This document shows positions 4,442 through 28,557 of a stretch of 64,000 bases of DNA, piece after piece. The DNA lies in assembly GCA_050949315.1 (NCBI GenBank), contig JBMNFL010000001.1, forward strand, positions 448,001 through 512,000, written 5' to 3'. This DNA is from Bacilli bacterium (GTDB taxonomy: Bacteria; Bacillota_I; Bacilli_A; RFN20; UBA1709). Numbering within the stretch: the stretch's first letter is position 1; each line of letters opens with the position of its first letter. A program made the translations under genes and the position numbers. Under the pieces are notes generated by a model. It had not been told where the DNA came from, made no database searches, and saw only the letters and a program-made list of their open reading frames with translations.

Positions 4442-4537
4442 GTTTTTCCCTTTCATCATAAATACGACACAAACTAATCTTCGTATATACAGTATACGCA
4501 AAACTTTTATTTTTCAAAAGTTTTACGCATAGTTTCC

Positions 4538-13274: not shown

Positions 13275-13297
13275 AAAAAGTGGCGTTGCCACTTTTT
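13275..13297. terminator. Bidirectional intrinsic terminator between uppS and etfA
   Basis: AAAAAGTGGC-GTT-GCCACTTTTT between convergent genes. Confidence 0.85.
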
Positions 13298-13300
13298 AGT

Positions 13301-14299
13301 TTACTGTTTATACTTTTTTATCTCTTCAATCAGGGCTGGTACCACCTGTTTGATATCGCCAACAATACCCACATCCGCCACTTTGAAAATCGGCGCGTAG
13401 CGGTCTTTATTAATGGCGACAATGAAGTCAGATTCTTCCATTCCCGCTAAGTGTTGGATAGCCCCTGACACCCCAAGAGCAATATACAAATTGGGTCTTA
13501 CGGTTTTACCGGTTTGACCGACTTGTCTTGCCTGTTCAATGGTACCACAATCAACGGAAGCTCTCGAACCAGAAATCGTTCCATTGAGTACCTTAGCTAA
13601 TTCCACCGCTAAGGGATAGGTTTCTTGACAGATACCACGACCCACCGAAACCAGAATCTTAGCATCCTCAATCCTATCACTGGACTGAACTTTTCTAATA
13701 ACCTTGACAATCTCTACTAATGATTTTGGACGATCAAGTTGGAAGGTAACATTAGTCACCGTTCCTTTTCTTTGACTATCAGCTTCCAGCTTCTTCATAA
13801 CACCCGGCCGTACCGTTGACATTTGGGGACGGTGATTAGGCGAAATAATGGTCGCCATTAAATTACCACCAAAAGCTGGTCTTGTCATAAACAAGGAGCC
13901 ATCCTCTTCCACCTCTAATTTGGTGCAGTCAGCGGTTAAACCTGTTCTCAACCTTGCGGATAAGCGCGGCGCTAAATCGCGACCAATCGAAGTCGCTCCA
14001 ACCAAAATGATATTAGGCTTGCGCTCTTCAACCACCGAATAAACCGCCTGAACATAGGGTTCAGTTAAATATTCTTGCAAGTCCCTACTATCAATAACAA
14101 TAACCTCATCAGCCCCGTGAGCAATTAAATCTTGAGCGGCATTCTTAATGTTGTAGCCCGCTAAGATCACGTGGAGGCTACTATGGGTCTTGTCGGCAAT
14201 TTCCCGACCTTTGCCTAATAATTGATAAGATACATCTTGCACCTTCCCATCTCGGGTTTCGGCAATGACATAGACATTTTTATATGCACTTAATTCCAT
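13301..14299 (-). CDS. etfA: Electron transfer flavoprotein alpha subunit
   Basis: GLTADCT, RPAFGGN, RQVGQTGKTVRP, GVSGAIQH. Confidence 0.96.
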   Translation of the reverse strand: MELSAYKNVYVIAETRDGKVQDVSYQLLGKGREIADKTHSSLHVILAGYNIKNAAQDLIAHGADEVIVIDSRDLQEYLTEPYVQAVYSVVEERKPNIILVGATSIGRDLAPRLSARLRTGLTADCTKLEVEEDGSLFMTRPAFGGNLMATIISPNHRPQMSTVRPGVMKKLEADSQRKGTVTNVTFQLDRPKSLVEIVKVIRKVQSSDRIEDAKILVSVGRGICQETYPLAVELAKVLNGTISGSRASVDCGTIEQARQVGQTGKTVRPNLYIALGVSGAIQHLAGMEESDFIVAINKDRYAPIFKVADVGIVGDIKQVVPALIEEIKKYKQ

Positions 14300-14311
14300 T
14301 ATTCTACCCTC

Positions 14312-15103
14312 CTATAAAAGATTTTTGTCAATTAGGGCTTCCAAGATTAATTTGGCCCCTTCAGCGGCACTGACATTATCGTAAGTGTGTCCTGCGGCCT
14401 TTAATTGTTTACCAAAGGATTGTTTGACTTGAGTGGGAGAGCCCTTTAAACCTAAAGTTGTCACATCAACATCAATTTTATCAGCACTCCAGATTTCAAC
14501 TTCCATTTCTCTAAAGGCTTTTAAAATGCCAGCAACACTCATATAACGCGGCTCAACTTCTTCACCAAGCACGGTTAAAACAACAGGTGTCTTAACCCTT
14601 AAAACATAACTGCGATCTTCCACTTTTCTAGTAACAAGACAAGTGCCATCCTCTTTATATTCTAAAGATTTCACATAAGAAACTTGTGGTAGATCTAATA
14701 ACTCGGCCGTCTCTGGTCCAACTTGCGCGGTATCGCCATCAATCGCCTGCCGACCCATAATTATAATGTCATAGGGTTCTAATTTTCTTATAGCTCCAGC
14801 TAGCGCACTAGAGGTAGCTAAAGTATCCGCACCGGCAAATTTAAAATCACTTAAAAGAATACCGCGATCGGCCCCCATCGCAAAGGCTTCACGAATGATC
14901 TCTGTCGCCTGCATCGGCCCCATAGAAAGGACAACAACTTCCGCACCATACTTATCCTTAAGCTGTAAAGCGACTTCTAAACCCGCCTTATCATCAGGAT
15001 TCATAATGCTAGGTACGCCTTCACGAATCAAGGTGCCTTTAACTGGATCAATTTTGATTTCCGTTGTATCAGGAACTTGTTTTAAACAACAAATAACACG
15101 CAT
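14312..15103 (-). CDS. etfB: Electron transfer flavoprotein beta subunit (clostridial bifurcating type)
   Basis: KQVPDT, MNPDD, FAGADTLATS, GRQAIDGDTAQVGP, GLKGSPT. Confidence 0.96.
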   Translation of the reverse strand: MRVICCLKQVPDTTEIKIDPVKGTLIREGVPSIMNPDDKAGLEVALQLKDKYGAEVVVLSMGPMQATEIIREAFAMGADRGILLSDFKFAGADTLATSSALAGAIRKLEPYDIIIMGRQAIDGDTAQVGPETAELLDLPQVSYVKSLEYKEDGTCLVTRKVEDRSYVLRVKTPVVLTVLGEEVEPRYMSVAGILKAFREMEVEIWSADKIDVDVTTLGLKGSPTQVKQSFGKQLKAAGHTYDNVSAAEGAKLILEALIDKNLL

Positions 15104-15115
15104 TTTCTTGTCCTC

Positions 15116-16252
15116 CTATCGTAAGATGGCCCCAGCGATAACCATTCTTTGAACCTCGCTAGTTCCTTCATAAATTTCTGTAATCTTCGCATCGCGCATC
15201 ATCCTCTCAATTGGATAATCGCGAGTATAACCATAGCCACCGAAGAGCTGTAAGCACTTAGTGGTAACTTCCATCGCCACTTCAGCACCAACTAATTTAG
15301 CCATCGCGGCTTTAAGACTTAAATCTTTAAGTTTCTGCTCTTTAGCTTCCGCGGCTTGTTCGACAAGCAAGGCGGCTGCCTGTGTCTTCGCGTAAAGCGA
15401 AGCTAGAACAAATTGAGTATTTTGGAAAGCGGCAATTGGCCGATTGAACTGTTTTCTTTCCTTGACATATTTGATGGTCTCGTTGATGGCGCCTTCCGCA
15501 ATACCAACGGCTTGAGCGGCAATGCCAACCCGGCCGCCATCTAAGGTCTTCATAGCAATAGAGAACCCTTGACCAACTTTACCAAGTAAGGCCTCTTTTC
15601 CTAAATGCACATTATCAAATATTAATTCACAGGTAGAAGAGCCTCTAATTCCCATCTTGTTTTCGGGTTTACCAACCGTAAAGCCTGGGGTTCCTCTCTC
15701 TAAAATAAAGGCGGTGATGCTCTTAACACCAATATTGCGATCGGTCATGGCAAAAATGATAAAGACATCCGCATAACCGGCATTGGTAATAAAGATTTTA
15801 GAACCATTTAAAATCCAACCATCCTCTACCTCAGTAGCTAATGTTTGCTGACCCGAAGCATCGGTTCCCGCATTAGGCTCAGTTAAGCCGAAGGCTCCTA
15901 CATGTTCCCCACTGCATAACTTAGGTAGATACTTAGCCTTTTGTTCAGGTGTCCCATACTCTAAAATTGGGGTCACACAAAGAGAGAAGTGGGCCGATAA
16001 GATAACCCCTGTGCTCGCACAAGCACTGGAAATCTTTCTTACGGCATGTGCATACATGGGAACACTAGCTCCTGCACCCCCATACTCTTTAGGAACACAG
16101 ATACCCATTAGACCAATCTCACCCATCTTTTTAACGGTATCAACGGGGAAAATCTCTAATTCATCGACTTCAGCGGCCCGAGGTTTGACTTCCGTTTCTA
16201 CAAACTCATCGAGCAATTTCTCATAGAGTTTAAATTCTGCTGTTTTTTCCAT
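15116..16252 (-). CDS. bcd: Butyryl-CoA/short-chain acyl-CoA dehydrogenase
   Basis: FGLTEPNAGTD, GIRGSST, GGYGYTRDYPIERMMRDAKITEIYEGT; adjacent to etfBA. Confidence 0.9.
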   Translation of the reverse strand: MEKTAEFKLYEKLLDEFVETEVKPRAAEVDELEIFPVDTVKKMGEIGLMGICVPKEYGGAGASVPMYAHAVRKISSACASTGVILSAHFSLCVTPILEYGTPEQKAKYLPKLCSGEHVGAFGLTEPNAGTDASGQQTLATEVEDGWILNGSKIFITNAGYADVFIIFAMTDRNIGVKSITAFILERGTPGFTVGKPENKMGIRGSSTCELIFDNVHLGKEALLGKVGQGFSIAMKTLDGGRVGIAAQAVGIAEGAINETIKYVKERKQFNRPIAAFQNTQFVLASLYAKTQAAALLVEQAAEAKEQKLKDLSLKAAMAKLVGAEVAMEVTTKCLQLFGGYGYTRDYPIERMMRDAKITEIYEGTSEVQRMVIAGAILR

Positions 16253-16273
16253 AAAACTGTCTCCTTTTCTAAA

Positions 16274-16672
16274 CTATTTGTATAAAACTGTCGCTTCACC
16301 AGTAGTAACCACTTTACCAAGCTGATTAACACATTCGGTTTTTAAAGTATAGATGTGTTTTTCCTCATTGGCAGCAATGATCTCTACCGTGGTAGTGATA
16401 GTATCGCCAAGATAAACAGGCTTTAAGAATTTTAGGCTCTGACCTAAATAAATTGTCCCCTGCCCTGGCAATTGATTGCCTAAAACCGCGGAAATATAAC
16501 CAGCGGAAATAATACCATGGGCAATTCTTCTACCAAACATCGATTTGGCGGCAAACGCCTCATCTAAATGCACGGGATTGCAATCACCAGAGACCTTGGC
16601 AAACATCTCGACATCTTCGGCAGTAACGGTTCTTGCCATACTGTCCTTCATACCAATTTTTAATTCTTTCAT
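16274..16672 (-). CDS. MaoC/PhaJ-type (R)-specific enoyl-CoA hydratase
   Basis: SGDCNPVHLD...RIAHG, LPGQGTIY hydratase-2 motif. Confidence 0.9.
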   Translation of the reverse strand: MKELKIGMKDSMARTVTAEDVEMFAKVSGDCNPVHLDEAFAAKSMFGRRIAHGIISAGYISAVLGNQLPGQGTIYLGQSLKFLKPVYLGDTITTTVEIIAANEEKHIYTLKTECVNQLGKVVTTGEATVLYK

Positions 16673-16693
16673 AAACTTCCCCTCACTTTTTAT

Positions 16694-17515
16694 TTATAAA
16701 TTTTTAATAATAAAGCCTAACATTATTGAACTCAGTATCCCTGGCTGCTCAAGAATAGGCACATGCCCACTATGTGGGAAAACGGCAAATTCACAATTAG
16801 GGATATTTTGATAGATAATCTCACTGAATTTTTGAGGCTTTAAGATATCATTCTGCCCACAAACAACTAGGGTTGGACATTTAATGTTCTTTAAAATATC
16901 CGTCATATAAACATCTTGAACAAAGGTATCGTAGAGGATTTTTTGACCATCATAATAACTCTTGTCTAAGGCCTTAAAACCCTTACCTCGCTCTAATAAC
17001 ATCGCTCGCTCTTTCTTTAAAAAGTCGGGGCCGTAGATAGCTGGAGCCATGACCCAAAAGAAAGTCTCTCCATCACCAATATCACAAAGAGCCTTCCAAC
17101 TGAGAACAAAGTTTTTACAGACCTCATCGAATTCTGAGATAGAATCAATAATCGTTAGGGTTTGAACATACTCGGGAAAAAGGCTAGCAAACTTCATGCC
17201 CACCTCTCCACCATAGGAGATGCCGGCGATATTGACTTTCTTTAAACCCAAGAAATCAAACAATTCCTTAGCTTCCTCGGCATGTTCTTTAAAAGAATAA
17301 ATACCGCTTTCGGGCACGGGTTTAGCCGACTTCATCTGACCTTTAAAATCATGGCAGACAATCTTAAAACCCGCCTTCTCAAAAATGGGAACACATAAGT
17401 CCCAACTATTAGTTGAGGCCATCACTCCGTTGAAAAAGGCAATTACCTTATCGGATTTAAGATCACCTTTGACTTCGTAATAGAGTTCTATACCTTTTTT
17501 GGTTTTAAAAATCAT
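16694..17515 (-). CDS. Alpha/beta hydrolase (enol-lactonase/esterase-like)
   Basis: FNGVM, GISYGG, ND, SGH. Confidence 0.88.
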   Translation of the reverse strand: MIFKTKKGIELYYEVKGDLKSDKVIAFFNGVMASTNSWDLCVPIFEKAGFKIVCHDFKGQMKSAKPVPESGIYSFKEHAEEAKELFDFLGLKKVNIAGISYGGEVGMKFASLFPEYVQTLTIIDSISEFDEVCKNFVLSWKALCDIGDGETFFWVMAPAIYGPDFLKKERAMLLERGKGFKALDKSYYDGQKILYDTFVQDVYMTDILKNIKCPTLVVCGQNDILKPQKFSEIIYQNIPNCEFAVFPHSGHVPILEQPGILSSIMLGFIIKNL

Positions 17516-17536
17516 TTTTCCCCCTCTTTCTCAATG

Positions 17537-18358
17537 TTAAACTTTATATTCTTCAGTAACTGTATTGATAAAACCTAAGGCTAGAGTCGAAAATAAGATG
17601 GGTTTTTCATACATTGAAGCATGACCCACATCGGGTATTTTGACATAAAAGCCGTTTTTAATACTCTTGAGTAACTGTTCTTGATTAGCAAGTGGCGTTA
17701 AATAATCCTGCTCCGCCCCAATGATTAAAGTGGGCGCTTTTAAATCCTTTAAAAGAGGACGCACATCGTAATTAGAAGAACTCTTAGTAAGCCTAATCAT
17801 CGCATCCGTAAAGTTTTTATCACTAAAGAGCGGGAACAAAATCTTTTCCCGATTGCGCATCCAATCAAGACGCCCTTCGTAGAAGGTTGGCGAATAGATA
17901 ATAGGAATCGCCGTATAGTAGTAATGCTCGCCTTTTCCGGTCTCGGCCGCCATATTCCAGGCTTTGCCAATATCATCTAACCAGGGCGTGGTATAAGCAC
18001 AGGTATTGAAAAGCACGAGCTTATCGACATATTCTTGATAACGGCAAGCGAATTCTAAAGCGACTTCCCCACCATAAGAAATACCAACTAAATTAACTTT
18101 TTTAAGTTTTAGTTCATCACATAAGGCCTTAAGAACTCTAACTTGAATATCGTGATCATAGGGGAATAAGTCGGCAATCTTACTACTCTGCCCCTGATCT
18201 AAAAAATCTACGAGAATCAGCTGATTATGGCAAGAAAAGTCCTCAATAAAAGGTACCCAACTCTTAGTTGACATCATAATGCCATTTAAGATGATCACGG
18301 GTTTTCCTTGACCATAGACTTCATAGTAAACTTCTTTGTTCTGAAAATTAAACTTCAT
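17537..18358 (-). CDS. Alpha/beta hydrolase (paralog of neighbour)
   Basis: LNGIM, GISYGG, QD, VGHASMYE. Confidence 0.88.
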   Translation of the reverse strand: MKFNFQNKEVYYEVYGQGKPVIILNGIMMSTKSWVPFIEDFSCHNQLILVDFLDQGQSSKIADLFPYDHDIQVRVLKALCDELKLKKVNLVGISYGGEVALEFACRYQEYVDKLVLFNTCAYTTPWLDDIGKAWNMAAETGKGEHYYYTAIPIIYSPTFYEGRLDWMRNREKILFPLFSDKNFTDAMIRLTKSSSNYDVRPLLKDLKAPTLIIGAEQDYLTPLANQEQLLKSIKNGFYVKIPDVGHASMYEKPILFSTLALGFINTVTEEYKV

Positions 18359-18360
18359 AA

Positions 18361-19689
18361 TTAATCCTCATCATCAAGATTGCCAATAATGCCATATTCT
18401 ACAGCTTCTTGATATAATTGCTCTCTAAACTTGGGATGGGCGATGGAAATAAGGGCTAAAACACGTTCTTTAACATTTAAACCCCAGAGATTTACCATGC
18501 CGTATTCAGTCACAATGTAATGAACATCTTGCCTTTGTAAAGTGACAATTGCCCCCGGTCTTAACTGGCTGACAATCTTAGAAACTTCTTCTCTTTCACC
18601 CGTCTTGGGATTTTTAACCATCGCGGTTGAATATAGACAAATAAAGGCTCGGCCGCCTTTTGAAAGTTGAGCACCAATTGCTGTATCGGCTTGACCACCC
18701 GCCCCACTAAATTGTCTAGACCCAATGGATTCCGAACAGACTTGACCTGTTAAATCAACTTCTAAAGCGGTATTAATGGAAACTTGATTATCGTTTTGGG
18801 CGATGACATGAGGATCATTAACATAACAACCGTCCAATAAGGAAACGGCGGGGTTATCATCCACAAAATCGTATAATTCTCTAGTCCCCACAATCATGGT
18901 GGTAACTGCCTTACCAGGGTGTAAATTCTTCTTGCTGTTATCAACGACACCAGCCTTCATTAATCTCATTAGCCCCGTTGTCAAGAGTTCGGTATGAACA
19001 CCTAAATGTTTCTTGTTAGCTAAAGCCGCACATACGGCATCAGGAATGCCCCCAATACCAATTTGAATGCAATCACCATCACGGATCTGGGAAGCGATAT
19101 AGTCACCGATAATTTTATCCTTCTCACTAAAAGTACCTTCAGGGACAATAGGTGGTTGATAATCAACTTCGATAAAGTAATCTACTTCATCAACTTTAAC
19201 TAAACAATCCCCCCAGGTTCTTGGATAATTGGGATTAACCTCTAAAATGACTAGTTTTGCCGCCGCCAATATTCTTTTCTCATAGGTGTTAGAAAGCGAT
19301 AAAGATACATAACCATGCTTATCGGGAAGTGAACAAACACCTATAAAAAGATCAGGATGAGGAACGTGATGTAGACGCCTAATGGCTGCAAAATGCAAGT
19401 GGTTAGGAATAAAAGACACGTTGCCATTGGGATGAGCTTTCCTAAGCGGTGGTGAATAAAACCAGCCATCACAAGCAAAGGAATGCCGGTATTTACGATC
19501 TAAATAAGCAAGATCGCTGAAAGGTAGGCAGTTGGTGATCTTCACGTTCTTAACGCGGTCAGCAATACTTGGTAAAGCCCCCATGAAGGCTCTAGCCTCG
19601 CCGCCACCTAAACCCGTCACGATGTGATAATCGGATTTAACAAACGATAAAGCCTTTTCTAATGTGATAATCTTGTCTTGATAGTTCAT
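18361..19689 (-). CDS. Acetyl-CoA hydrolase/transferase family CoA-transferase (Cat2/But-like)
   Basis: IQIGIGGIP, GVHTE, EVDLTGQVCSE, SGAGGQ, VTEYG. Confidence 0.92.
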   Translation of the reverse strand: MNYQDKIITLEKALSFVKSDYHIVTGLGGGEARAFMGALPSIADRVKNVKITNCLPFSDLAYLDRKYRHSFACDGWFYSPPLRKAHPNGNVSFIPNHLHFAAIRRLHHVPHPDLFIGVCSLPDKHGYVSLSLSNTYEKRILAAAKLVILEVNPNYPRTWGDCLVKVDEVDYFIEVDYQPPIVPEGTFSEKDKIIGDYIASQIRDGDCIQIGIGGIPDAVCAALANKKHLGVHTELLTTGLMRLMKAGVVDNSKKNLHPGKAVTTMIVGTRELYDFVDDNPAVSLLDGCYVNDPHVIAQNDNQVSINTALEVDLTGQVCSESIGSRQFSGAGGQADTAIGAQLSKGGRAFICLYSTAMVKNPKTGEREEVSKIVSQLRPGAIVTLQRQDVHYIVTEYGMVNLWGLNVKERVLALISIAHPKFREQLYQEAVEYGIIGNLDDED

Positions 19690-19776
19690 AGTGAACTCCC
19701 TCCTTTTTTATATTTAAACTATTTAAAAAGCAACAAAAGCTAAATACTTTTTAAATTGATCAAACATTTGATAGAA

Positions 19777-19804
19777 AGTCGAGGGGGTGGCCTACCCCTC
19801 GACT
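19777..19804 (-). terminator. GC-rich hairpin after the substrate-binding protein gene (mRNA stabiliser/partial terminator)
   Basis: AGTCGAGGGG / CCCCTCGACT 10-bp stem, weak U tract. Confidence 0.7.
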
Positions 19805-19823
19805 ATACTATTAATGAGATAAA

Positions 19824-21323
19824 CTATTTCTTTAAATTGGTTGGAATATGATCCATGACGTCTTTAAGTGTCCTAATACCATCAACAGCAACTAAGGTGT
19901 AAGCACCGGTAGAAGTCTTTTCTAAACTGATAGTATTTAAGGCTAAACTAGTAACACCAAATCTGTTACCATCTGAGTAATCAAGTGTGCCACCCATTGG
20001 AAGTGAAACTTCTTTTTCTTCCATGGCCTCAATGTAGTTCTTCCAAGTTAAGTCCTTATTAGCAGCTTTAACTCTCTTTAAACCTTCCACGAAAATCTTA
20101 CCAGCGATGTAGCCAGCCATACCATAGGAGTTGGCCATATACTCTGGATGACCATTTCTAGCAACACATTCGGCATAGTCCCAGTAATCTTGGCTATAGG
20201 CGGTAGCTACTTGGACCCAATAGAAATCTCCATTTGCTAGAACAGCAAAGCCATACTCATTTTTCTTCTCGTTAATTTCAGTCTTTACAGTATCGGTTGG
20301 AACTGCAAGCGTATACTGATACTTCGTAGCATCAGCTGGATTATCAGGATCGACTGTCACTTTGTAATAGGCCGTATGAGTAACTGCTCTAGTTACATCT
20401 GTAATATCTAACCAAGCGGTGGTATAAACGGGTCTATCCTTAGTGATAACTTTGTTATCAACTAAATCCCCTAGCGTTTTCGTATTGGCACTAACATAGG
20501 ATGTGATTACCTTAGCATCGTAGGCTGCCGCTTTCATGTAGTTAAGAATCTCCGTAAACGGAACTTGGTTAGCCGCCACGATGACGACATCACATTGAGC
20601 ATTCTTTAATTTGTTAACCGCTGCACTGTGATCAGTGCCCTGATCAGCCGCAGTAGTAACATAAGTGATACTCATCTTAACTTCTTTAGCTTGCTTCTTA
20701 ATGCCGGCTAGCATACCAGTACCAGCATCATCAGTAGTGGAAATGACACCGACTTTTGTGCCACCTAAACCCCAGTCTTCTTCAGTTGCCGCCACGGCTC
20801 TGGCTAATAAAACCTGACCTTCGGCGTCAAAAATTGGTTGCACAGGCATAACCGCTCTGTTGTAACCTTTGGCTTTTTCTTGGTATAAGCTACTAACACC
20901 AGTGGCAGCATATACCATTGGTACACCTTTTTCCTTGATGTAATCAACTGTTTGGGTGACAGTATTGGTCCCAAAGTGACCAACTAAAGCAAAAATCTTG
21001 TCTTCTTCGACTAATTTTTTGGTGTAGGTTAAGCCTTTGGCGCCATCAAAGTCGTCATTATAGTGCTTTAATTTGACATGAGCACCACCAAAGCCACCCG
21101 CGGCATTGTAATCGGCAAAGACCGCTTCAATTGCAGCATTGAATGGAACGCCAACGACAGCAAAGCCGCCAGCAGTAGCCGCAGTATTACCAACAACAAT
21201 TTCGCTTGCGCTAACGCCTTGGACTTCTGTTCCATCATACTCGACAACTTTTTGCCCACAAGAAGTGATCATGATGCCCAGCAAGGCTAGTAAGCCTACA
21301 AACCCTAAACTTCTCTTCTTCAT
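19824..21323 (-). CDS. Liv/HAAT-family ABC substrate-binding lipoprotein
   Basis: Lipobox ITSC, periplasmic-binding type 1 features (ALVGHFGT, VYAATG). Confidence 0.88.
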   Translation of the reverse strand: MKKRSLGFVGLLALLGIMITSCGQKVVEYDGTEVQGVSASEIVVGNTAATAGGFAVVGVPFNAAIEAVFADYNAAGGFGGAHVKLKHYNDDFDGAKGLTYTKKLVEEDKIFALVGHFGTNTVTQTVDYIKEKGVPMVYAATGVSSLYQEKAKGYNRAVMPVQPIFDAEGQVLLARAVAATEEDWGLGGTKVGVISTTDDAGTGMLAGIKKQAKEVKMSITYVTTAADQGTDHSAAVNKLKNAQCDVVIVAANQVPFTEILNYMKAAAYDAKVITSYVSANTKTLGDLVDNKVITKDRPVYTTAWLDITDVTRAVTHTAYYKVTVDPDNPADATKYQYTLAVPTDTVKTEINEKKNEYGFAVLANGDFYWVQVATAYSQDYWDYAECVARNGHPEYMANSYGMAGYIAGKIFVEGLKRVKAANKDLTWKNYIEAMEEKEVSLPMGGTLDYSDGNRFGVTSLALNTISLEKTSTGAYTLVAVDGIRTLKDVMDHIPTNLKK

Positions 21324-21379
21324 AGTTTTCCCTCCTTGAAAAGTTTTTTATTATTATTGTCAATGACAATTAATAACCA

Positions 21380-22141
21380 TTATTTTTTGCCTCCTAAATA
21401 GGCGGCGACTAAGCGCTCATCATTGATAAGATCAGACGCTAAGCCATGCATTGAGATTGTACCTAATTCCAAAACATACGCATAATCAGCAATTTTTAAA
21501 GTGGCAAGAGCGTTTTGTTCAACAATTAAAATTGAGGTACCACTAGCCCGAATTTTTACTAGTGTTTCGAAAATATCTTTAATGATTAAAGGGGCAAGAC
21601 CTAAGGATGGTTCATCTAAAAGCAAGATTTTAGGACTGGCCATTAGGGCCCGACCAATCGCTAACATCTGCTGTTCGCCACCTGACAAGGTGCTAGCTTG
21701 TTGTTTTCTTCTTTCCTTGAGTATGGGGAAAAGGTCAAATACTTTTTCCATATTTTCTAACAACTGAGCTTTCGCACTTTTGCTTACTTCTTTACCTTCA
21801 ATCATAAACTTTTTGGTTTTTAAACCATAAGCGCCGACCCTTAAATTTTCTTCAACCGTGAGGCCCATTAAAATCAAACGCCCCTCAGGTGACTGTGATA
21901 AGCCCATTCTAGCGATGGCATAAGCCCTTCTGTTAGCAATATTCTTGCCCTCAAAAAGAATTTCACCCTTAGTTACTTTAGCCATACCGCTGATCGCTTT
22001 AAGTACCGAGGTTTTACCCGCACCATTGGCCCCTAACAAGGCCACAATCTGACCTTCTTTAACCGTAATGTCAATACCCTTAACCGCTTGAATGGCCCCA
22101 TAATTTATGACCAGATTCTTAACTTCTAATACCTTAGACAT
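21380..22141 (-). CDS. livF: Liv-type ABC ATPase (LivF-like)
   Basis: GANGAGKT, LSGGEQQMLAIGRALM, LDEPSLGLAP. Confidence 0.92.
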   Translation of the reverse strand: MSKVLEVKNLVINYGAIQAVKGIDITVKEGQIVALLGANGAGKTSVLKAISGMAKVTKGEILFEGKNIANRRAYAIARMGLSQSPEGRLILMGLTVEENLRVGAYGLKTKKFMIEGKEVSKSAKAQLLENMEKVFDLFPILKERRKQQASTLSGGEQQMLAIGRALMASPKILLLDEPSLGLAPLIIKDIFETLVKIRASGTSILIVEQNALATLKIADYAYVLELGTISMHGLASDLINDERLVAAYLGGKK

Positions 22142-22144
22142 AAA

Positions 22145-23548
22145 TCATTCACCTTCCTCTTCTTGTACACCTAAGTAGGCGGTTTGGACATCAACGTTCG
22201 CTTGAATTTCAGTTGGAGTTCCGATGGCTAATTTCTTACCAAAAGAAATCGCACAAACAGTGTCACAAATCTCCATAACTAAGCCCATATCATGTTCGAC
22301 AAGTAGAATCGTACACTTATAGGTCTCTTGGATTTTCCTAATTAATTTTGCTAATTCCTCAGTTTCGCTATCATTTAAACCAGCTGCTGGTTCATCGAGG
22401 ATAATGAGTTGAGGATCAGACATCAAGGTTCTAGCAATCTCGATCTTTTTAAGGACACCATAAGGTAGTCCCATCGCATACCAGTTGGCATAAGGTAGTA
22501 AGCCCATAAAATTTAAAACCTTTAGGGCTCTCTGCCGAATGATGATTTCTTCAGCGGCTAGTTTTGATGAGTGGAACATATGTTCAAAAATGTTGGTGTG
22601 GTATTGACGATGAGCAGCGATTAGTAAGTTATCTAAAACGCTGACCTCTTTCACGACCTCAATATTTTGGAAGGTTCTAACGATGCCTTCTAAAATAACA
22701 TCGTGAACCACTTTACTATTTAAATCGATGACTTTCCCCCGTTTATTTTCAAAATAGATTTCACCTCTGGTAGGCTTATAAAACTGGGTAATACAGTTAA
22801 AGACCGTAGTTTTACCGGCCCCATTAGGACCGATTAAACCAAAGATTTCACCCTTTTTAACTTTGAAGCTTAAATCTTCAACCGCACGAACACCACCAAA
22901 GAACATACATAGATCCTTGACCTCTAAAACAATGCCTTCATCTAGATGGTATTCACTTTGCTCTTCAAGATTTAAACGACTCTCTTTTTGCTTTCTTTTA
23001 GCCTCCATTTTTTCAATTCTTTGGGCATATCTTTTAGCAAACTTTTCTTTCAAAATAGCATATTTTGCTTTGATTTTTTCTGTTTCCGTGGTCACGTTTT
23101 GTTGATATTCGGCCTCGGCCTTATCTAAATCAACACCGGTTGCATCTTTAACAATCTGAGCTTGAATTTCTTTTTGAAGGGCTTCTTTATAACTAGCAAG
23201 TTCTTTTGCAATCTCCTCTTCAATGGCCTTAAATAATTCCTCGCTCATTTGAACTTTCTTCTTGGTGTTCTCTAATTTATAGGCCTTTCTTAACTCTTCT
23301 TTTTTAGCCTCAACTTTACGCTCAACGATGTAATCAAAAGCCTTAGGATCTTGAAGCGTTTGAAAACGCAGAGCCTCAAGTTTTAATTTTTTATTTTGAG
23401 TGGCCTTAGCTATCTCAGTTTGGCATTTCTCTTCTAACAAATAATCCTTCGCTGCCGCGGCATCTTTATAAAGCGCGATCCGACCAACTAAATTCCGATA
23501 ACGCGCGAGATGAAAGTCGGCTTTTAACGTCTTAAGCTTTGCTGCCAT
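22145..23548 (-). CDS. livG: Liv-type ABC ATPase (LivG-like) with ~200-aa charged N-terminal extension
   Basis: GPNGAGKTT, LDEPAAGL, VEHDM in the C-terminal part; K/E-rich helical N-terminus. Confidence 0.9.
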   Translation of the reverse strand: MAAKLKTLKADFHLARYRNLVGRIALYKDAAAAKDYLLEEKCQTEIAKATQNKKLKLEALRFQTLQDPKAFDYIVERKVEAKKEELRKAYKLENTKKKVQMSEELFKAIEEEIAKELASYKEALQKEIQAQIVKDATGVDLDKAEAEYQQNVTTETEKIKAKYAILKEKFAKRYAQRIEKMEAKRKQKESRLNLEEQSEYHLDEGIVLEVKDLCMFFGGVRAVEDLSFKVKKGEIFGLIGPNGAGKTTVFNCITQFYKPTRGEIYFENKRGKVIDLNSKVVHDVILEGIVRTFQNIEVVKEVSVLDNLLIAAHRQYHTNIFEHMFHSSKLAAEEIIIRQRALKVLNFMGLLPYANWYAMGLPYGVLKKIEIARTLMSDPQLIILDEPAAGLNDSETEELAKLIRKIQETYKCTILLVEHDMGLVMEICDTVCAISFGKKLAIGTPTEIQANVDVQTAYLGVQEEEGE

Positions 23549-24626
23549 AACGTTTTACCTCCCTTTCAATCTTTTTTAATTTTGCTTTATAACGGATATT
23601 GAAAACCATCTGGGCAAAACCACCAGGGTAGTACATGACGATGACAATCATCAAAACCCCAGCTAAAAGGGTGACAATTGTCGGGTGGGCGGCAAAGAAA
23701 GCGATGCGTGAAAGAACCATGGTATCTAAGGCATAGATAAAGAAAGTGCCCGCGGTAACGCCCCACAAAGATTTGTAACCGCCGATAATGACTGCTCCTA
23801 AAATGTAAAGCGAGGTCGCTAAAGTAAATAAGGTTGAGGTTGCGGTCACGACCGCCCGATAGTAAAGCATATACAACACACCGGCAATCGCCGCGTAAAT
23901 AATTGAAATAATAAAGGCTAACAAGCGATACTTCATAAGACTAATTCCCATGGCCTGGGCGGCGGAAGTACTGCTCTTCATGGCTACCATCGCTCGCCCT
24001 GTTGGACTTTGAATTAGATTGGCAACTAGCACTGTTAAAAAGACAAACATGATAACAATTACAAAGTAAACCACTCTAGTATTTAATTGAAACACCCAAA
24101 ATAAGGTAATATTATTTGCCTGAATTTTAATGGTAGCGGCCAAAGTTTTTAATAACTTAACAATCATCTCTGAGAAGGCTAGAGTCATGATTGCTAAATA
24201 GATACCCTCAATTCTCAGCGAAATAAAACCAACAAGTACCCCAATGATAATAGACACTATTAGAGTAACTATTAAGGTTGTAAAATAATCTAGACCTATT
24301 CCTTGCATCATATAATAGGCCGTATACGAACCTATCGCGACAAAACCCGCGGTACCAAGAGAGGCTAATCCTGAATAACCGAGCAATAGACAATAACCAA
24401 CCGTGACAATACTGTAAATTATCGCTTGCGTAATTGCCATCTCATAACTGGCTGGTAAAACACCGGCTAAAATCAGGAATTCAACCAAGAATAAAATAAG
24501 CCCAAAAACAACAAACTGATAGGATTGTTTTTGTTTGATCTTCTGCCAAAAGCTGATTTTTTGATTAGCTCTTGGATCCGTTTTTTGAAGTTCTAGATAC
24601 TCTTTCTTTAAATCAAAATTTTTCAT
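23532..24626 (-). CDS. livM: Liv-type ABC permease (LivM-like)
   Basis: GYSGLASLG, SPTGRAMVA, YPGG; multi-TM. Confidence 0.88.
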   Translation of the reverse strand: MKNFDLKKEYLELQKTDPRANQKISFWQKIKQKQSYQFVVFGLILFLVEFLILAGVLPASYEMAITQAIIYSIVTVGYCLLLGYSGLASLGTAGFVAIGSYTAYYMMQGIGLDYFTTLIVTLIVSIIIGVLVGFISLRIEGIYLAIMTLAFSEMIVKLLKTLAATIKIQANNITLFWVFQLNTRVVYFVIVIMFVFLTVLVANLIQSPTGRAMVAMKSSTSAAQAMGISLMKYRLLAFIISIIYAAIAGVLYMLYYRAVVTATSTLFTLATSLYILGAVIIGGYKSLWGVTAGTFFIYALDTMVLSRIAFFAAHPTIVTLLAGVLMIVIVMYYPGGFAQMVFNIRYKAKLKKIEREVKRYGSKA

Positions 24627-24628
24627 AC

Positions 24629-25534
24629 CTATACCTTCTTTGCTACCTTTTTACCAAACAAACCCTGTGGCTTGATGAGAATGGCTACTAACAGAAGCAT
24701 ATAAACAATGACTTCATTCCAATTTAAAACTCCATCAATAAAGTTATCAAAGAAACCCACAAAACTCATGGCTAAAGGAATGATAACCGCCCCGATAATC
24801 GGACCATAGAAGGTGGAAAAACCTCCAAGTATACCCGCCAAGAAAGCGTTGACTTGATATCTAGTCATAAAGGTTGAGGTTAGTTGACCGGTGCCGCCGG
24901 CTAACATGATCGCGGCCAGTACTCCTAATCCACCAGCAATCGCCCAAGTAGCCGCTGTTATCACATGGGTGTTGACACCCATGAGTTCTGCTGTAGTTTC
25001 ATTGGAAGCGGTCGATCTAACCGCTAAACCCCACTTGCTGAACTTTAATAACAAGAAAATTGCGGCAATCACAACTATAGTTATGCCGGCACTAATCAAG
25101 GCATGGTAAGTAAAGACAACTTCACTTCCCCCAACTTCAAAAATTAAGTTACCTTCCACAAAGGGTGGAATCTTCGGTGCTTCTTGTACTCCAAAGATGA
25201 TGGGAATGATACCAATAATAATGGAAACTAACCCCATGGTAATAATTTGTTTACCAATCGCATTGACCTGGCGACCGCGCCTAAAGATAACCGCATCTAC
25301 AAATAAACCAAATAAAATACCTACGACTAAGCCTACGGCGATACTGAGATAAAAATTCCAGCCAGCATCACAGGCTAAATAGGTCGTAAAATAACAGCCC
25401 AGAGCCGCGATTGAACCCTGCGCAAAATTGGTGGTCGTTGAGGTCTTAAAGATGAGCGAAATGCCCATCGTGGCCACCACGGTCACACAAATTGTCAATA
25501 ACGATGTCGCAAGTGTTGCAAAAAGCGCTCCCAT
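24629..25534 (-). CDS. livH: Liv-type ABC permease (LivH-like)
   Basis: NFAQG, GLAVRS...AELMGVN, KPQGLFG. Confidence 0.88.
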   Translation of the reverse strand: MGALFATLATSLLTICVTVVATMGISLIFKTSTTTNFAQGSIAALGCYFTTYLACDAGWNFYLSIAVGLVVGILFGLFVDAVIFRRGRQVNAIGKQIITMGLVSIIIGIIPIIFGVQEAPKIPPFVEGNLIFEVGGSEVVFTYHALISAGITIVVIAAIFLLLKFSKWGLAVRSTASNETTAELMGVNTHVITAATWAIAGGLGVLAAIMLAGGTGQLTSTFMTRYQVNAFLAGILGGFSTFYGPIIGAVIIPLAMSFVGFFDNFIDGVLNWNEVIVYMLLLVAILIKPQGLFGKKVAKKV

Positions 25535-25537
25535 TAA

Positions 25538-26563
25538 CTATTTCCCCCATCTAATAACGTTGGCTGACCAAACATAGCCGATTCCCGCCGCAATCATGCA
25601 GACGATGGAACCATCTTTGACTTTCCCTTCCTTTAAAGCTAAGTGCAGGGATAAAATCTGATCAATTTGACCAACATGACCATAATGTTCTAAATAAATG
25701 GATTGTTCTTCTTTTAAACCGAGATCTTTAAGCATGCCTAAATGACCGGAACGTTTCATATGCAAGACGGCTAAATAATCAATCTTTTTATCTAAGCCCG
25801 CTTTTTCAAAAGACTTATCAATGCACTTATACCAATTGGGCATGGAAACTTGATTTAAACGATTTTTCATTGTAACCGGATCTAATAACCTTAAAGACTT
25901 CGCAGCTTCTTCGACATTATCAGGCGTGATAGGATTAGCAATACCGCCAATTTCCACCCCCGCTGTTCTTGCTAAAGAGCCATCGGAAATTAGATGCGAG
26001 GCTAACAAAAGATTTTTACCATAATTTTTCTTTAAGATGAGGGCGCCGCCCCCGGCACCTAAATTATACATCATCGACATATTATTGTCCGTGTAATCTA
26101 CAAAATCGCCATTGCGATAACCACCACAAACTAAGATGGTATCAATGGTATCATCGGCAATCAACATCGTACGCGCTACTTCCATGGCTGCGACACAGGT
26201 GCAGCAACGATTCTGAACATCTAGTGCCCAAGCATTATCAGCCCCAATCCGTCCTTGAATGTAGCAAGCTGAGGTTGTTAGAGGATACTCCTTATATTCT
26301 TCACCAATGCAGAGGATGACATCGATATCTAAGGGATCAACGCCTGTGTTTTTTAAACAATCTAAGGCGGCTAAAGCCCCCATCTCTTGAGTTCCATCTT
26401 CAGGTCCTTTGCCCGGCACGCATTTCTCAATAATGCCTAATTTGTTAATTACGGCTTCTTCACTCCAATGGCCTAAAGTGGCCTCAGAAATCTGTTTAGC
26501 CGTCATTTTTGACTTCGGCAAATAGATGCCGGTACCGACAATTCCCACGTTGACTTTTTTCAT
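25538..26563 (-). CDS. FabH/KAS III-like thiolase-fold enzyme with Cys-His-His triad
   Basis: GTGIYLP, DVQNRC (catalytic Cys), LHMKRS, YGHVGQ (His in place of the FabH Asn), AAGIGYVW. Confidence 0.85.
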   Translation of the reverse strand: MKKVNVGIVGTGIYLPKSKMTAKQISEATLGHWSEEAVINKLGIIEKCVPGKGPEDGTQEMGALAALDCLKNTGVDPLDIDVILCIGEEYKEYPLTTSACYIQGRIGADNAWALDVQNRCCTCVAAMEVARTMLIADDTIDTILVCGGYRNGDFVDYTDNNMSMMYNLGAGGGALILKKNYGKNLLLASHLISDGSLARTAGVEIGGIANPITPDNVEEAAKSLRLLDPVTMKNRLNQVSMPNWYKCIDKSFEKAGLDKKIDYLAVLHMKRSGHLGMLKDLGLKEEQSIYLEHYGHVGQIDQILSLHLALKEGKVKDGSIVCMIAAGIGYVWSANVIRWGK

Positions 26564-26681
26564 AAATTTTCTTTCTCCTTCATGGCTTTAAGCTCTCTTA
26601 TTTATATTTCTAACTTGCATTTCACAAATGTTTTAACCTAAGCTCTGAACGATATTCTTGTTGGGCGCAATTATTATTTTT

Positions 26682-26695
26682 TGTTAGCGCTTACA
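26682..26695. promoter_or_regulatory. cre-like (CcpA/LacI-family) site
   Basis: TGTTAGCGCTTACA fits TGWNANCGNTNWCA at every position; ~120 bp upstream of the catabolic operon. Confidence 0.65.
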
Positions 26696-26835
26696 AAAAT
26701 GAAACACGAATCTTTCTTCAGTATTATTTTTTCACATCCGTTCAATTAAGTCAAGCGAAAGAATGCAATTTCTTTTGCTAAAAGCAAGTTTTTTTAAAAG
26801 TACTAGTAAGGTAGTTTAAAAATCAAACCAAAACA

Positions 26836-26849
26836 TGAATGATTATTCA
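26836..26849. promoter_or_regulatory. Candidate TetR operator TGAAT-N4-ATTCA (copy 1)
   Basis: TGAATGATTATTCA in the divergent intergenic region. Confidence 0.6.
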
Positions 26850-26937
26850 AACTACCGTGCATTTATTTTATTTACGAAAAAAGTGCGATTTTTACGAATT
26901 ATTTTCTTAAAAACCCGAACGATAAGAAAAGTTTTAC

Positions 26938-26992
26938 TTGCAATTCGTCCTTATTTATTGTATCTTAACAATCAGTGTTGAATACTGATTCA
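26938..26992 (+). promoter_or_regulatory. tetR promoter (TTGCAA-17-TATCTT) and operator TGAATACTGATTCA (26979-26992)
   Basis: Second perfect TGAAT-N4-ATTCA lies between the -10 and the RBS (AGGAGG 26998). Confidence 0.6.
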
Positions 26993-27010
26993 CTTTTAGG
27001 AGGAATAAAT

Positions 27011-27634
27011 ATGTTTCGTTATGACAATATCAAACAACCAAAGACAAGAAAGGGGCGCGAAACTTTTGAAAGAATCGTCCGCGCTGGTGAAAAACTATTT
27101 CATCTTTTAACCTACCCTGTTGCCTCTATCACCGATATTGCTAGGGAAGCGAAAATCGGTATTGGAACCTTCTATTTATATTTTGAAAGCAAACAAAGTC
27201 TTTTTAGATATCTAGTTTTATCTTACCATCACGAAATTCGCCGCGACATCGCTGAACTTGCCCGTGATGGCAAAAACCGGCAAGAAGTGGAGCGTCTAGG
27301 TTTTAAAGCCTTCTTCCGCTACATCTTCAAAAATCCTTATGCCTACACTATTATTTGGCAATCGCTAGTCGTTGACAAAGAACTTTTTAATTATTATTAC
27401 ACAACCTTTGCCGATAAATATCGCATCGGTATTCAAAAAGCCATTGACGATGGGGAAATCTATCCCGATATGAGTGCCATTGATATCGCCTATGCCTTGA
27501 TGGGCATCACTAACTTTGTCGGTCTTAAACTTTCGGTCTTTAATGATGGGATTAAACCGACAGCCAAAGACATTGACAAAACGGTTGATGAGGCGATGAA
27601 ACTCGTCAGCCATGGAATTTTTATTAAGAAATAA
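27011..27634 (+). CDS. TetR/AcrR family regulator
   Basis: SITDIAREAKIGIGTFYLYFESK HTH; divergent from the catabolic operon. Confidence 0.93.
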   Translation: MFRYDNIKQPKTRKGRETFERIVRAGEKLFHLLTYPVASITDIAREAKIGIGTFYLYFESKQSLFRYLVLSYHHEIRRDIAELARDGKNRQEVERLGFKAFFRYIFKNPYAYTIIWQSLVVDKELFNYYYTTFADKYRIGIQKAIDDGEIYPDMSAIDIAYALMGITNFVGLKLSVFNDGIKPTAKDIDKTVDEAMKLVSHGIFIKK

Positions 27635-27640
27635 GCAGTA

Positions 27641-27665
27641 AAAAAAGGTTCAAGCGAACCTTTTT
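27641..27665. terminator. Bidirectional terminator
   Basis: AAAAAAGGTTC-AAGC-GAACCTTTTT. Confidence 0.85.
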
Positions 27666-28557
27666 ATTTTAGATGCTCTTTGAAGCTCTGGGCTAAAAAA
27701 TCTGTTTGGTCAATGATAGGGGAATGCCCTGAATCTTTAATGACCACGAATTCCAACTGTTTAAAACCTTCCTTATTTTCTAAGGCCATGTAAGAAGGAA
27801 CTGTAATATCCTTTTCACCCCAATAGCTCACAATAGGACAGGTGACCTTAGCAGCTAAACCATTACCAGGATTATAGCCATTATGCTTATCGGACATATT
27901 GAAGTTAGCTAAAGCCCAGTCAACATCTATCAAGCAGCGTTGCTTAAGAGTTTCCGTTAAATAGATGTGACCATCCTCTGGACTTGGTCCTCTACCAGCA
28001 CTATAGATAGCAAAATTCCAAACATTCTCCATTAACTCATAATTTTTAGCCTCAATGGCCGTTTGGACTGGCAAAACCTGAACGGGATCTAGAGCCATCT
28101 CTTCTTTGCTCTTATAGACTTGCCCTAATAAAACTTGACCATTGGCGTCTTTCTTGTAAACAGGATAACCACGATATGACATCGAATTGACTAACAATAC
28201 CTGTTTGACAAGTTTGGGATAAGTGGCCGCTAAATACAGGACCACACCCCCGCCCGCTGACCAGCCAGCAAAGGCGGCCTTCTTAATGGCGAGTTTGTCA
28301 CAAAAGGCTTTGATGTCTTCACCTAATTCTTCAAGACTATCAAAGGGCTTATTGTAGGAACTGTCACCAAGACCGCGAAAATCGGGAGCATAAATTTTGT
28401 AATCATGCTCTAGTTTTTCAATCAAAGGTGTCCAGTGAATAGAAGAAGACATGTTGCCATGGAGCAAGACTAAAACCTTGTCTCCCTTGCCCTCTTCAAG
28501 GTAGGCGATTTTCTCGCCACTAGGAATTTCAACATACTTTTTAATATACTTTTTCAT
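27664..28557 (-). CDS. Alpha/beta hydrolase resembling Bacillus-type intracellular PHB depolymerase (PhaZ)
   Basis: LHGNMSSSIHW, DFRGLGDSSY, GWSAGG, SYRGYP, SGHSP; family assignment is from recall. Confidence 0.7.
   Translation of the reverse strand: MKKYIKKYVEIPSGEKIAYLEEGKGDKVLVLLHGNMSSSIHWTPLIEKLEHDYKIYAPDFRGLGDSSYNKPFDSLEELGEDIKAFCDKLAIKKAAFAGWSAGGGVVLYLAATYPKLVKQVLLVNSMSYRGYPVYKKDANGQVLLGQVYKSKEEMALDPVQVLPVQTAIEAKNYELMENVWNFAIYSAGRGPSPEDGHIYLTETLKQRCLIDVDWALANFNMSDKHNGYNPGNGLAAKVTCPIVSYWGEKDITVPSYMALENKEGFKQLEFVVIKDSGHSPIIDQTDFLAQSFKEHLK

Follow-up and report, generated by a model that had tools for sequence, protein, structure and literature searches.

A probable locus for scavenging exogenous (R)-3-hydroxybutyrate, joined to a butyrate-forming branch, in a Bacilli bacterium of the UBA1709 lineage

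A 64,000-nucleotide stretch of the genome of a Bacilli bacterium (GTDB lineage Bacillota_I; Bacilli_A; RFN20; UBA1709; assembly GCA_050949315.1, contig JBMNFL010000001.1, positions 448,001 to 512,000), referred to below as the window, carries a locus that probably encodes a scavenging pathway for exogenous (R)-3-hydroxybutyrate (3HB), acquired most likely as short oligomers or esters of poly-3-hydroxybutyrate (PHB) and possibly as the monomer. A first-pass annotation, made from the DNA sequence alone, had proposed that 3HB esters or oligomers are imported, hydrolysed, activated with coenzyme A (CoA), dehydrated and reduced to butyrate. This proposal is supported by the family assignments of the genes, by their linkage in other genomes, and by searches that found neither a polyhydroxyalkanoate (PHA) synthase nor another route to crotonyl-CoA in this genome. 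The locus looks like a combination of two known kinds of metabolism, 3HB catabolism and butyrate formation by butyryl-CoA dehydrogenase (Bcd) with electron-transfer flavoprotein (Etf), rewired in this lineage towards an electron sink.

The locus extends from position 13301 of the window, the stop end of etfA, to 28557, the start of a third hydrolase gene. The run of 13 minus-strand genes described earlier (13301-26563) was borne out gene for gene by open reading frames, Pfam and NCBIfam; the divergent tetR gene is present, as is the adjacent third hydrolase with its HGNMSS and GWSxG motifs (GWSAG in the translation). The genes are as follows.

25538-26563, minus strand: FabH-like protein with the fold of 3-oxoacyl-ACP synthase III (KAS III), PRK06840 family (NF005308); first gene of the run
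24629-25534, minus strand: livH, ATP-binding cassette (ABC) permease, LivH/UrtB-like (PF02653; every equivalog model below its cut-off)
23532-24626, minus strand: livM, ABC permease, LivM/UrtC-like (PF02653, NCBIfam)
22145-23548, minus strand: livG, LivG-like ABC ATPase with an N-terminal extension (ABC_tran, LivG model)
21380-22141, minus strand: livF, LivF-like ABC ATPase (Pfam, NCBIfam)
19824-21323, minus strand: substrate-binding lipoprotein (SBP), 499 aa, Peripla_BP_6 (PF13458)
18361-19689, minus strand: CoA-transferase of the 4-hydroxybutyrate (4HB)/butyryl-CoA:acetate family (PF13336, PF02550)
17537-18358, minus strand: esterase A (hydrolase A), cytoplasmic alpha/beta esterase, nucleophile motif GISYG (PDB 4Q3L)
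16694-17515, minus strand: esterase B (hydrolase B), cytoplasmic alpha/beta esterase, divergent paralogue of A (PDB 4Q3L)
16274-16672, minus strand: MaoC, PhaJ-like (R)-specific enoyl-CoA hydratase by family, 132 aa (PF01575)
15116-16252, minus strand: bcd, butyryl-CoA dehydrogenase (PDB matches)
14312-15103, minus strand: etfB, bifurcating type (PDB matches)
13301-14299, minus strand: etfA (PF01012 and PF00766)
26975-27634, plus strand: tetR, divergent TetR-family regulator (PF00440)
27664-28557, minus strand: phaZ homologue (the third hydrolase), Bacillus-type 'intracellular' short-chain-length (scl) PHA depolymerase family (NF050089)

The third hydrolase points to the substrate. It scores 336.4 bits against NF050089, above the curated cut-off of 300, and so upholds the PhaZ-type identity suggested for it. 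It aligns with the solved PHB depolymerase 8YNV over residues 6-291 (286 residues, E 1.9e-74) and retains the HGNMxSS, GWSxGGG and GHSP motifs of that enzyme, which presumably hold the catalytic nucleophile and histidine. No hydrophobic N-terminus was seen by eye in any of the three hydrolases. In the window's genome, PhaC_N had no match and the class III/IV PHA synthase model TIGR01836 reached only 18.1 bits; the same model had no match in 399 related genomes, a search with no positive control over the cut-off. Because no PHA synthase was found in the host, this family member by sequence is unlikely to mobilise granules, and its substrate should come from outside. An 'intracellular'-type depolymerase in a cell without granules, linked with an ABC importer, is consistent with the cleavage of imported oligomers in the cytoplasm. 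The gene directly upstream of phaZ (28641-31124, minus strand) encodes an 827-aa MacB-like fused ABC ATPase/FtsX permease.

Esterase A matches the metagenomic esterase MGS-M2 (PDB 4Q3L) at E 2.5e-80, and its orthologues, 36-71% identical, adjoin the CoA-transferase gene in relatives. Esterase B matches the same structure at E 1.2e-31; no orthologue of it was seen in the relatives' loci, where its best match (31% identity) lies at the esterase A position. The NCBIfam matches of both proteins (enol-lactonase, RutD, macrolide esterases) are all far under cut-off. Elsewhere in the window, 3581-4501 (minus strand) encodes a fourth alpha/beta hydrolase (306 aa), whose only matches, MenH-like and lipase-like, are weak.

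Uptake would be served by the Liv-type importer, whose permeases and ATPases match components of the LIV-I system at the superfamily level only. In the LivG-like ATPase the ABC_tran domain begins at residue 224 and the LivG model covers residues 207-460; the preceding N-terminal part of about 205 residues (22937-23548, minus strand) is rich in lysine and glutamate and has a coiled-coil-like look. Relatives' LivG proteins align over 324-328 of 467 residues, which implies that about 70 residues of the extension are common to both. The N-terminus of the SBP runs to ...IMITSCGQ, a lipoprotein signal, and PF13458 spans its residues 42-278 only. The protein scores 31.9 bits against a LivJ-type model with a cut-off of 477 and thus falls outside the LivJ/LivK group of LIV-I; its best PDB match is 3LOP (E 6.9e-8), and it is just 27-47% identical to the binding proteins of relatives.

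Regarding the enzymes of CoA-ester metabolism, the transferase had been described as Cat2/But-type. It does belong to the wider 4HB/But family, as indicated by PF13336, PF02550 and its nearest structures, the 4HB-CoA-transferases 9VAG and 3GK7 (E about 1e-90), but not to the But equivalog itself (TIGR03948, 289.5 bits against 674.8). The assignment of MaoC as a PhaJ-type, (R)-specific hydratase agrees with its nearest structures, 1IQ6 (E 5.7e-33) and 5CPG (8.3e-32). This protein is a single hot-dog domain with SGDCNPVH in its translation, where we take FAKVSGDCNPVHLDEAFA to be the hydratase-2 motif with the catalytic Asp and His. Bcd and EtfB are nearest to the complexes 5OL2, 6FAH and 4KPU, in line with the predicted bifurcating type of Bcd-EtfAB: Bcd matches 9W60 (503.9 bits), 5OL2_C (488) and 4L1F (413), and the five best matches of EtfB include 5OL2_B (E 1.7e-83), 6FAH_B, 4KPU_B and 7QH2_B. 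The EtfB segment AIDGDTAQVGP, which we assume to bind the second FAD/NADH, is identical in 5OL2_B. EtfA scores 364 bits against an AcrA-type model, under its cut-off.

The Liv/Urt-like permeases and ATPases could be taken to indicate uptake of branched-chain amino acids or short-chain acids coupled to a reductive branch of the Stickland or fatty-acid type, since the reductive branches of amino-acid fermentation use Bcd-Etf modules as well. This explanation is extremely unlikely: Pfam finds no 2-hydroxyacyl-CoA dehydratase, aminotransferase or keto-acid oxidoreductase in the locus, the SBP lies far below the LivJ/K cut-off, MaoC enzymes work on 3-hydroxyacyl thioesters, and the locus is strongly linked with PHB depolymerase genes.

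This linkage was traced by way of the FabH-like gene, which is better conserved than any other in the locus, and the synteny check proposed with the first-pass annotation came out in its favour, since many genomes keep the FabH-like locus together with PHB genes. Of 41 related genomes, 12 contain the gene, and all 12 also have a PhaZ match of at least 215 bits, against a best score of 86.6 bits in the other 29. When 399 genomes from across the phylum were scored, the FabH-like family was over its cut-off in 54 and PhaZ was found at E<=1e-50 in 56; all 54 genomes of the former set fall within the latter, the two genes often being direct neighbours or no more than about 10 kb apart. Loci from the survey of protein records and from the genome sample may share public genomes, so their counts are not additive.

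In 12 class-level loci drawn from this sample, a short-chain dehydrogenase/reductase (SDR), the FabH-like protein, the CoA-transferase and esterase A were present in every case; a thiolase was found in 11, phaZ in 11 (within the stretch fetched) and an orthologue of the divergent tetR in 10. The best-scoring models for the locus SDR are those of FabG and acetoacetyl-CoA reductase. The same core occurs in Alkalibacterium putridalgicola, Vagococcus salmoninarum, Neobacillus niacini and Athalassotoga saccharophila, and in metagenome bins labelled Izemoplasmatales, Tenericutes, Mollicutes and Bacilli. The FabH-like/CoA-transferase pair of two Shouchella species has a sigma-54 activator and a sodium/solute symporter on one side and a depolymerase on the other; the depolymerase of one species (L040) is of the extracellular PHB type (NF050058, 306.7 bits against 150) and has a homologue in the other (L042). 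One member of the window's own family carries an esterase of the PHB-depolymerase family (TIGR01840) on the locus contig.

These comparisons bear on another explanation, in which the locus applies the same logic to some other short hydroxy-acid substrate (an ester, oligoester or lactone), such as 3-hydroxyvalerate or fragments of poly(3-hydroxybutyrate-co-3-hydroxyvalerate), lactate oligomers or other 3-hydroxyacyl esters. For esterases A and B the sole structural match is a generic metagenomic esterase, their family matches being far under cut-off, and the SBP is uninformative on its ligand, so that a related hydroxy-acid ester is a possible substrate; the chain-length preference of the PhaJ-like and Bcd-like enzymes is likewise unreadable from scores. 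Nevertheless, the PhaZ equivalog call points specifically to 3HB units, extracellular scl-PHB depolymerases are neighbours of the locus elsewhere, its canonical form includes an acetoacetyl-CoA-reductase-like SDR and a thiolase, and Bcd is nearest to butyryl-CoA dehydrogenases. We therefore consider a substrate other than 3HB unlikely.

The MaoC-bcd-etfBA genes have a narrower distribution. In the window's family they form the last part of the operon, and two further families (L108, L109) have them beside the locus, each in an arrangement of its own; from the other 10 of the 12 class-level loci they are missing. Ten loci of relatives in the same family and order (L002-L011) were compared with the window, and in seven of them the SDR gene is flanked by tetR and the FabH-like gene; it is missing from the window, where 26564-26974 holds no detectable remnant of it, and from L003, one of the closest relatives. 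The window's lineage has thus lost the PhaB/FabG-like reductase. We read MaoC-bcd-etfBA as a reductive branch added onto what appears to have been an ancestrally oxidative 3HB pathway.

The genome as a whole was searched for other ways of making and using crotonyl-CoA. It is a single contig of 1,011,443 bases with 37.7% G+C, rated 92.85% complete and normal under translation table 11. Within it, no crotonase (ECH_1), no convincing Hbd (the best partial match had 26 bits), no carboxyltransferase for Gcd and no AbfD-type/HpaB_N protein were found, and KamA reached only 17.5 bits. With Hbd, crotonase, AbfD, KamA and the carboxyltransferase not found, the PhaJ-like step is the only evident entry to Bcd-Etf, which gives 3HB the look of an electron sink. 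The genome also encodes Rnf and an [FeFe]-hydrogenase. One Pta gene and one gene of the acetate-kinase family lie elsewhere in it, so butyrate would most simply be released by the CoA-transferase.

The only SDR in the genome that resembles the locus reductase (contig positions 942250-943044) was considered as a substitute for PhaB and rejected, as it is ketodihydrosphingosine-reductase-like and lies beside a serine-palmitoyltransferase-like gene. The pair itself (941076-943044, plus strand) consists of the latter gene (541 bits, cut-off 640) followed by the 3-ketodihydrosphingosine-reductase-like SDR (234.7 bits, cut-off 400), and may mean sphingolipid synthesis in a 1 Mb genome without type II fatty-acid synthesis (FASII). 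Two thiolases are encoded elsewhere in the genome. One belongs to an atoDAEB-like cluster (145497-149839) with 3-oxoacid CoA-transferase subunits A and B and a TIGR00366 short-chain fatty-acid transporter-like protein, which could handle acetoacetate; its neighbours are housekeeping genes, and it does not belong to a lysine-fermentation cluster. A beta-keto-acid cleavage enzyme is encoded close to the second thiolase and to an IS481-like transposase (region 999608-1004713); the enzyme was not accepted as the Kce of lysine fermentation, because the 3,5-dioxohexanoate:acetyl-CoA acetone transferase model scores higher (402 bits, cut-off 430).

The FabH-like protein scores 464.5 bits against NF005308, the PRK06840-type KAS III-like model (curated cut-off 315). 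Its AlphaFold2 model (pLDDT 84) resembles solved FabH structures with a TM-score of about 0.8 at 20-24% sequence identity; a fold search with the model returned FabH-like folds only, and a protein-atlas look-up gave generic KAS III names only. Alignment to the FabH structure 2EBD places its triad at Cys120, His268 and His296, the last replacing the Asn of FabH, and all three residues are invariant in 13 aligned sequences, so that the Cys-His-Asn triad of FabH is not what these proteins carry. Identity in this alignment (A1) is 64-91%, save for two sequences at 54% and 41%; that of the CoA-transferase is lower (49-77%). The FabH-like gene lies directly ahead of the CoA-transferase gene in many Bacillota, and full-length natural fusions of the two form four protein clusters of 784-798 aa. 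Other natural fusions join the FabH-like protein to a hydrolase (two), an ABC ATPase (one) or an AMP-binding enzyme (one); some of all these fusions (P0121-P0128) may be gene-calling artefacts. A predicted complex of the FabH-like protein with the CoA-transferase scored 0.00 with controls not run, a result that counts neither way.

Since KAS III enzymes normally condense, a CoA-dependent route resembling fatty-acid synthesis could be envisaged, in which the FabH-like protein, SDR, MaoC, Bcd-Etf and CoA-transferase build butyrate from acetyl units and the transporter and esterases are unrelated neighbours. In relatives, the FabH-like protein, the FabG/PhaB-like SDR, MaoC and Bcd would cover all four chemical steps, and the natural fusions with CoA-transferase and, in one case, with an AMP-binding enzyme would suit such a route. 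However, the window has no ketoreductase, and with no carboxyltransferase found in the genome there is no evident source of malonyl-CoA. MaoC-bcd-etf is missing from most class-level loci, where PhaZ and esterase A are nearly always there, and both the linkage with PhaZ (54 of 54) and the extracellular depolymerase neighbours would be left unexplained. This route is accordingly very unlikely. More generally, the genome search found no FabF/B, no other KAS III and no carboxyltransferase, and only one carrier-protein gene, so the FabH-like protein lacks recognisable FASII partners and a malonyl donor there, which makes fatty-acid synthesis or any malonyl-dependent condensation by it unlikely.

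Within the 3HB-scavenging pathway favoured here, it is proposed that the FabH-like enzyme acts together with the CoA-transferase, handling the acyl-CoA that the latter makes or uses. Its possible chemistries would include CoA-dependent cleavage of oligomer esters and a thiolase-like or aldolase-like reaction. One possibility is thiolysis with CoA of the oxo-ester bond of a 3HB oligomer or of 3-(3-hydroxybutyryloxy)butyryl-CoA, which would save the ester bond as 3HB-CoA instead of losing it to hydrolysis; another is a thiolase- or aldolase-like cleavage of a C4 unit. The family is very large (5254 of 8000 scored candidates at E<=1e-30) and is annotated in the sources solely as '3-oxoacyl-ACP synthase', probably a misannotation as a fatty-acid synthase component. 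A bolder view, which we put forward only as a doubtful conjecture, is that the Cys-His-His protein is a new thiolase-superfamily enzyme of polyester catabolism that partners the CoA-transferase and, with the importer and esterases, defines a widespread undescribed pathway for exogenous PHB oligomers. If true, this would be a pathway of bacteria that do not make PHA, rewired here to a 3HB-reducing, ferredoxin-generating electron sink, and the rewired form would be a fifth entry to butyrate.

Gene content, family membership, conservation and linkage are established at the level of sequence; from them we infer the substrate, the direction of flux, the CoA donor, the CoA loop and the mode of energy conservation in the following scheme. 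The Liv-type ABC importer with its divergent lipoprotein receptor would take up the substrate, and the cytoplasmic esterases (the PhaZ homologue, esterase A and, here, also esterase B) would free 3HB. The CoA-transferase would then make (R)-3HB-CoA, the most economical donor being butyryl-CoA, which would close a CoA loop and release butyrate. The PhaJ-like hydratase would turn (R)-3HB-CoA into crotonyl-CoA, and Bcd-EtfAB would reduce this with NADH while ferredoxin is reduced alongside, to be re-oxidised by Rnf or the [FeFe]-hydrogenase. In most relatives 3HB-CoA could also be oxidised via the PhaB/FabG-like reductase and thiolase of the same locus. In the window's genome the reductive branch is the only evident fate of (R)-3HB-CoA, and the loss of the reductase would make 3HB mainly an electron acceptor, comparable to caffeate in Acetobacterium.

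Several points weigh against this scheme. The usual form of the locus is oxidative, with thiolase and reductase, and the butyrate branch is a lineage-specific addition. The scheme leaves the FabH-like gene, although better conserved than the rest of the locus, without a role. The families of all three esterases are broad, and 4Q3L was deposited with no label beyond that of a metagenomic protein; the CoA-transferase is far beneath the But cut-off; and the SBP, weakly similar to solved proteins and poorly conserved, is silent on the ligand. At 92.85% completeness, absences from the genome are no proof, and the PHA synthase search over 399 genomes had the control limit given above. Related genomes are not independent, so co-occurrence counts overstate the support and are to be read as linkage, not as a statistical test.

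As regards expression and habitat, public runs in which this DNA occurs are labelled as anaerobic digester or bioreactor metagenomes, environments that receive PHA-rich sludge. Four bioreactor-sludge metatranscriptome libraries contain contigs at least 99% identical over most of the locus; X15 covers 28 of 30 bins, X17 and X18 cover 16 of 30, and 14948-15484 is uncovered in all four runs. Single contigs from these libraries span seven junctions, namely esterase A/CoA-transferase, SBP/livF, livF/livG, livG/livM, livM/livH, livH/FabH-like and bcd/MaoC. Such contigs may contain DNA and thus cannot prove transcription or a single transcript; they lend the scheme weak support.

The gaps between the 13 genes are mostly 21 nt or less, or are overlaps; wider gaps separate livF from the SBP gene (56 nt) and the SBP gene from the CoA-transferase gene (134 nt). 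Inside the run there is no terminator-like site comparable to the hairpin that follows etfA. The candidate control elements are listed below.

13275-13297, both strands: bidirectional terminator-like hairpin after etfA, with a 10-pair stem and T runs on each strand
26726-26754, minus strand: promoter-like site 5' of the FabH-like gene (TTGACT, 17 nt, AAAAAT, with TG), a consensus match only
28634-28606, minus strand: promoter-like site of the phaZ homologue, with 11 of 12 consensus matches

Promoter-like sites in the region numbered 43 against 38.6 expected from shuffling, which is not above expectation. The tetR gene more likely starts at the ATG at 27011, behind AGGAGG. Between the promoter-like site and the start of the FabH-like gene lies a near-perfect 22-bp palindrome (26678-26699, TTTTTGTTAGC/GCTTACAAAAA), a candidate TetR operator; among 113 loci, the only match to its exact pattern is the window's own copy. 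Elsewhere in the window, genes for the NrdG activase (33515-34207, plus strand) and the anaerobic ribonucleotide reductase NrdD (36834-39209, minus strand) are consistent with anaerobic life, and a 2240-aa open reading frame occupies 46998-53720 (minus strand).

Classical PHB and 3HB catabolism proceeds by depolymerase, oligomer hydrolase, oxidation to acetoacetyl-CoA and thiolysis. The present locus resembles it in having a depolymerase homologue, further esterases and a CoA-transferase, to which the canonical form adds a reductase/dehydrogenase and a thiolase. It differs in that no PHA synthase was found in the host and the 'intracellular' type of depolymerase is paired with an ABC importer. 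Furthermore, activation would precede oxidation, since the SDR resembles an acyl-thioester reductase and not a free-acid 3HB dehydrogenase; the FabH-like enzyme is always in the locus; and the window swaps the oxidative branch for PhaJ-Bcd-Etf. Relative to FabH of FASII, the FabH-like protein retains the fold, the nucleophilic Cys and the first His; unlike FabH, it has His for Asn, it occurs in a genome where FabF and carboxyltransferase were not found, and it is genetically tied to CoA-transferase and PHB depolymerase genes.

The clostridial bcs operon consists of thl-hbd-crt-bcd-etfBA. As the first-pass annotation had stated, Pfam finds no canonical thl, hbd or crt among the genes of the locus, which is therefore not an operon of this type. 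Four routes to crotonyl-CoA in butyrate formation are catalogued by Vital et al. (2014; PMC3994512), who also name a KEGG PHB-to-butyrate route and then set it aside. With the bcs operon and these four routes the locus would share the final Bcd-EtfAB step and release by CoA-transferase; unlike them, it would form crotonyl-CoA from an (R)-3-hydroxyacyl-CoA by a MaoC/PhaJ hydratase. Signature genes of the four routes (Hbd, Crt, AbfD-type, KamA and Gcd-type) were looked for in this genome and not found. Caffeate respiration (CarA-E of Acetobacterium woodii) and the acrylate pathway of Clostridium propionicum combine CoA-loop activation with enoyl-CoA reduction by a bifurcating Etf and transfer of ferredoxin electrons to Rnf. 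By analogy, the locus appears similar to these systems in its CoA-transferase loop, its acyl-CoA dehydrogenase with bifurcating Etf, and Rnf, subunits of 6FAH being among the matches. It differs from them in that its substrate would be a 3-hydroxy acid needing dehydration first, and in that genes for uptake and de-esterification are in the operon.

A literature search covering titles and abstract openings, with subscription journals outside its scope, found no earlier description under genes for anaerobic 3HB or PHB degradation, Izemoplasma with butyrate or PHB, PHB depolymerase in Acholeplasma or Mollicutes, or KAS III with CoA-transferase and depolymerase; nor did the name 'PRK06840' appear in the literature searched.

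Sludge and sediments are rich in PHB and other PHAs, which also serve as bioplastics, and to our knowledge the genes that govern their anaerobic fate are poorly known. The locus offers a testable genetic marker for bacteria that take up breakdown products of PHB without making PHA themselves, including wall-less relatives of Bacilli with reduced genomes. It also draws attention to a very large FabH-like family that is called a fatty-acid synthase component, yet is present in a genome in which no genes for fatty-acid synthesis were found. For the lineage of the window, it suggests a route to butyrate left out of the usual four-pathway catalogues, in which 3HB may serve as an electron acceptor coupled to the reduction of ferredoxin.

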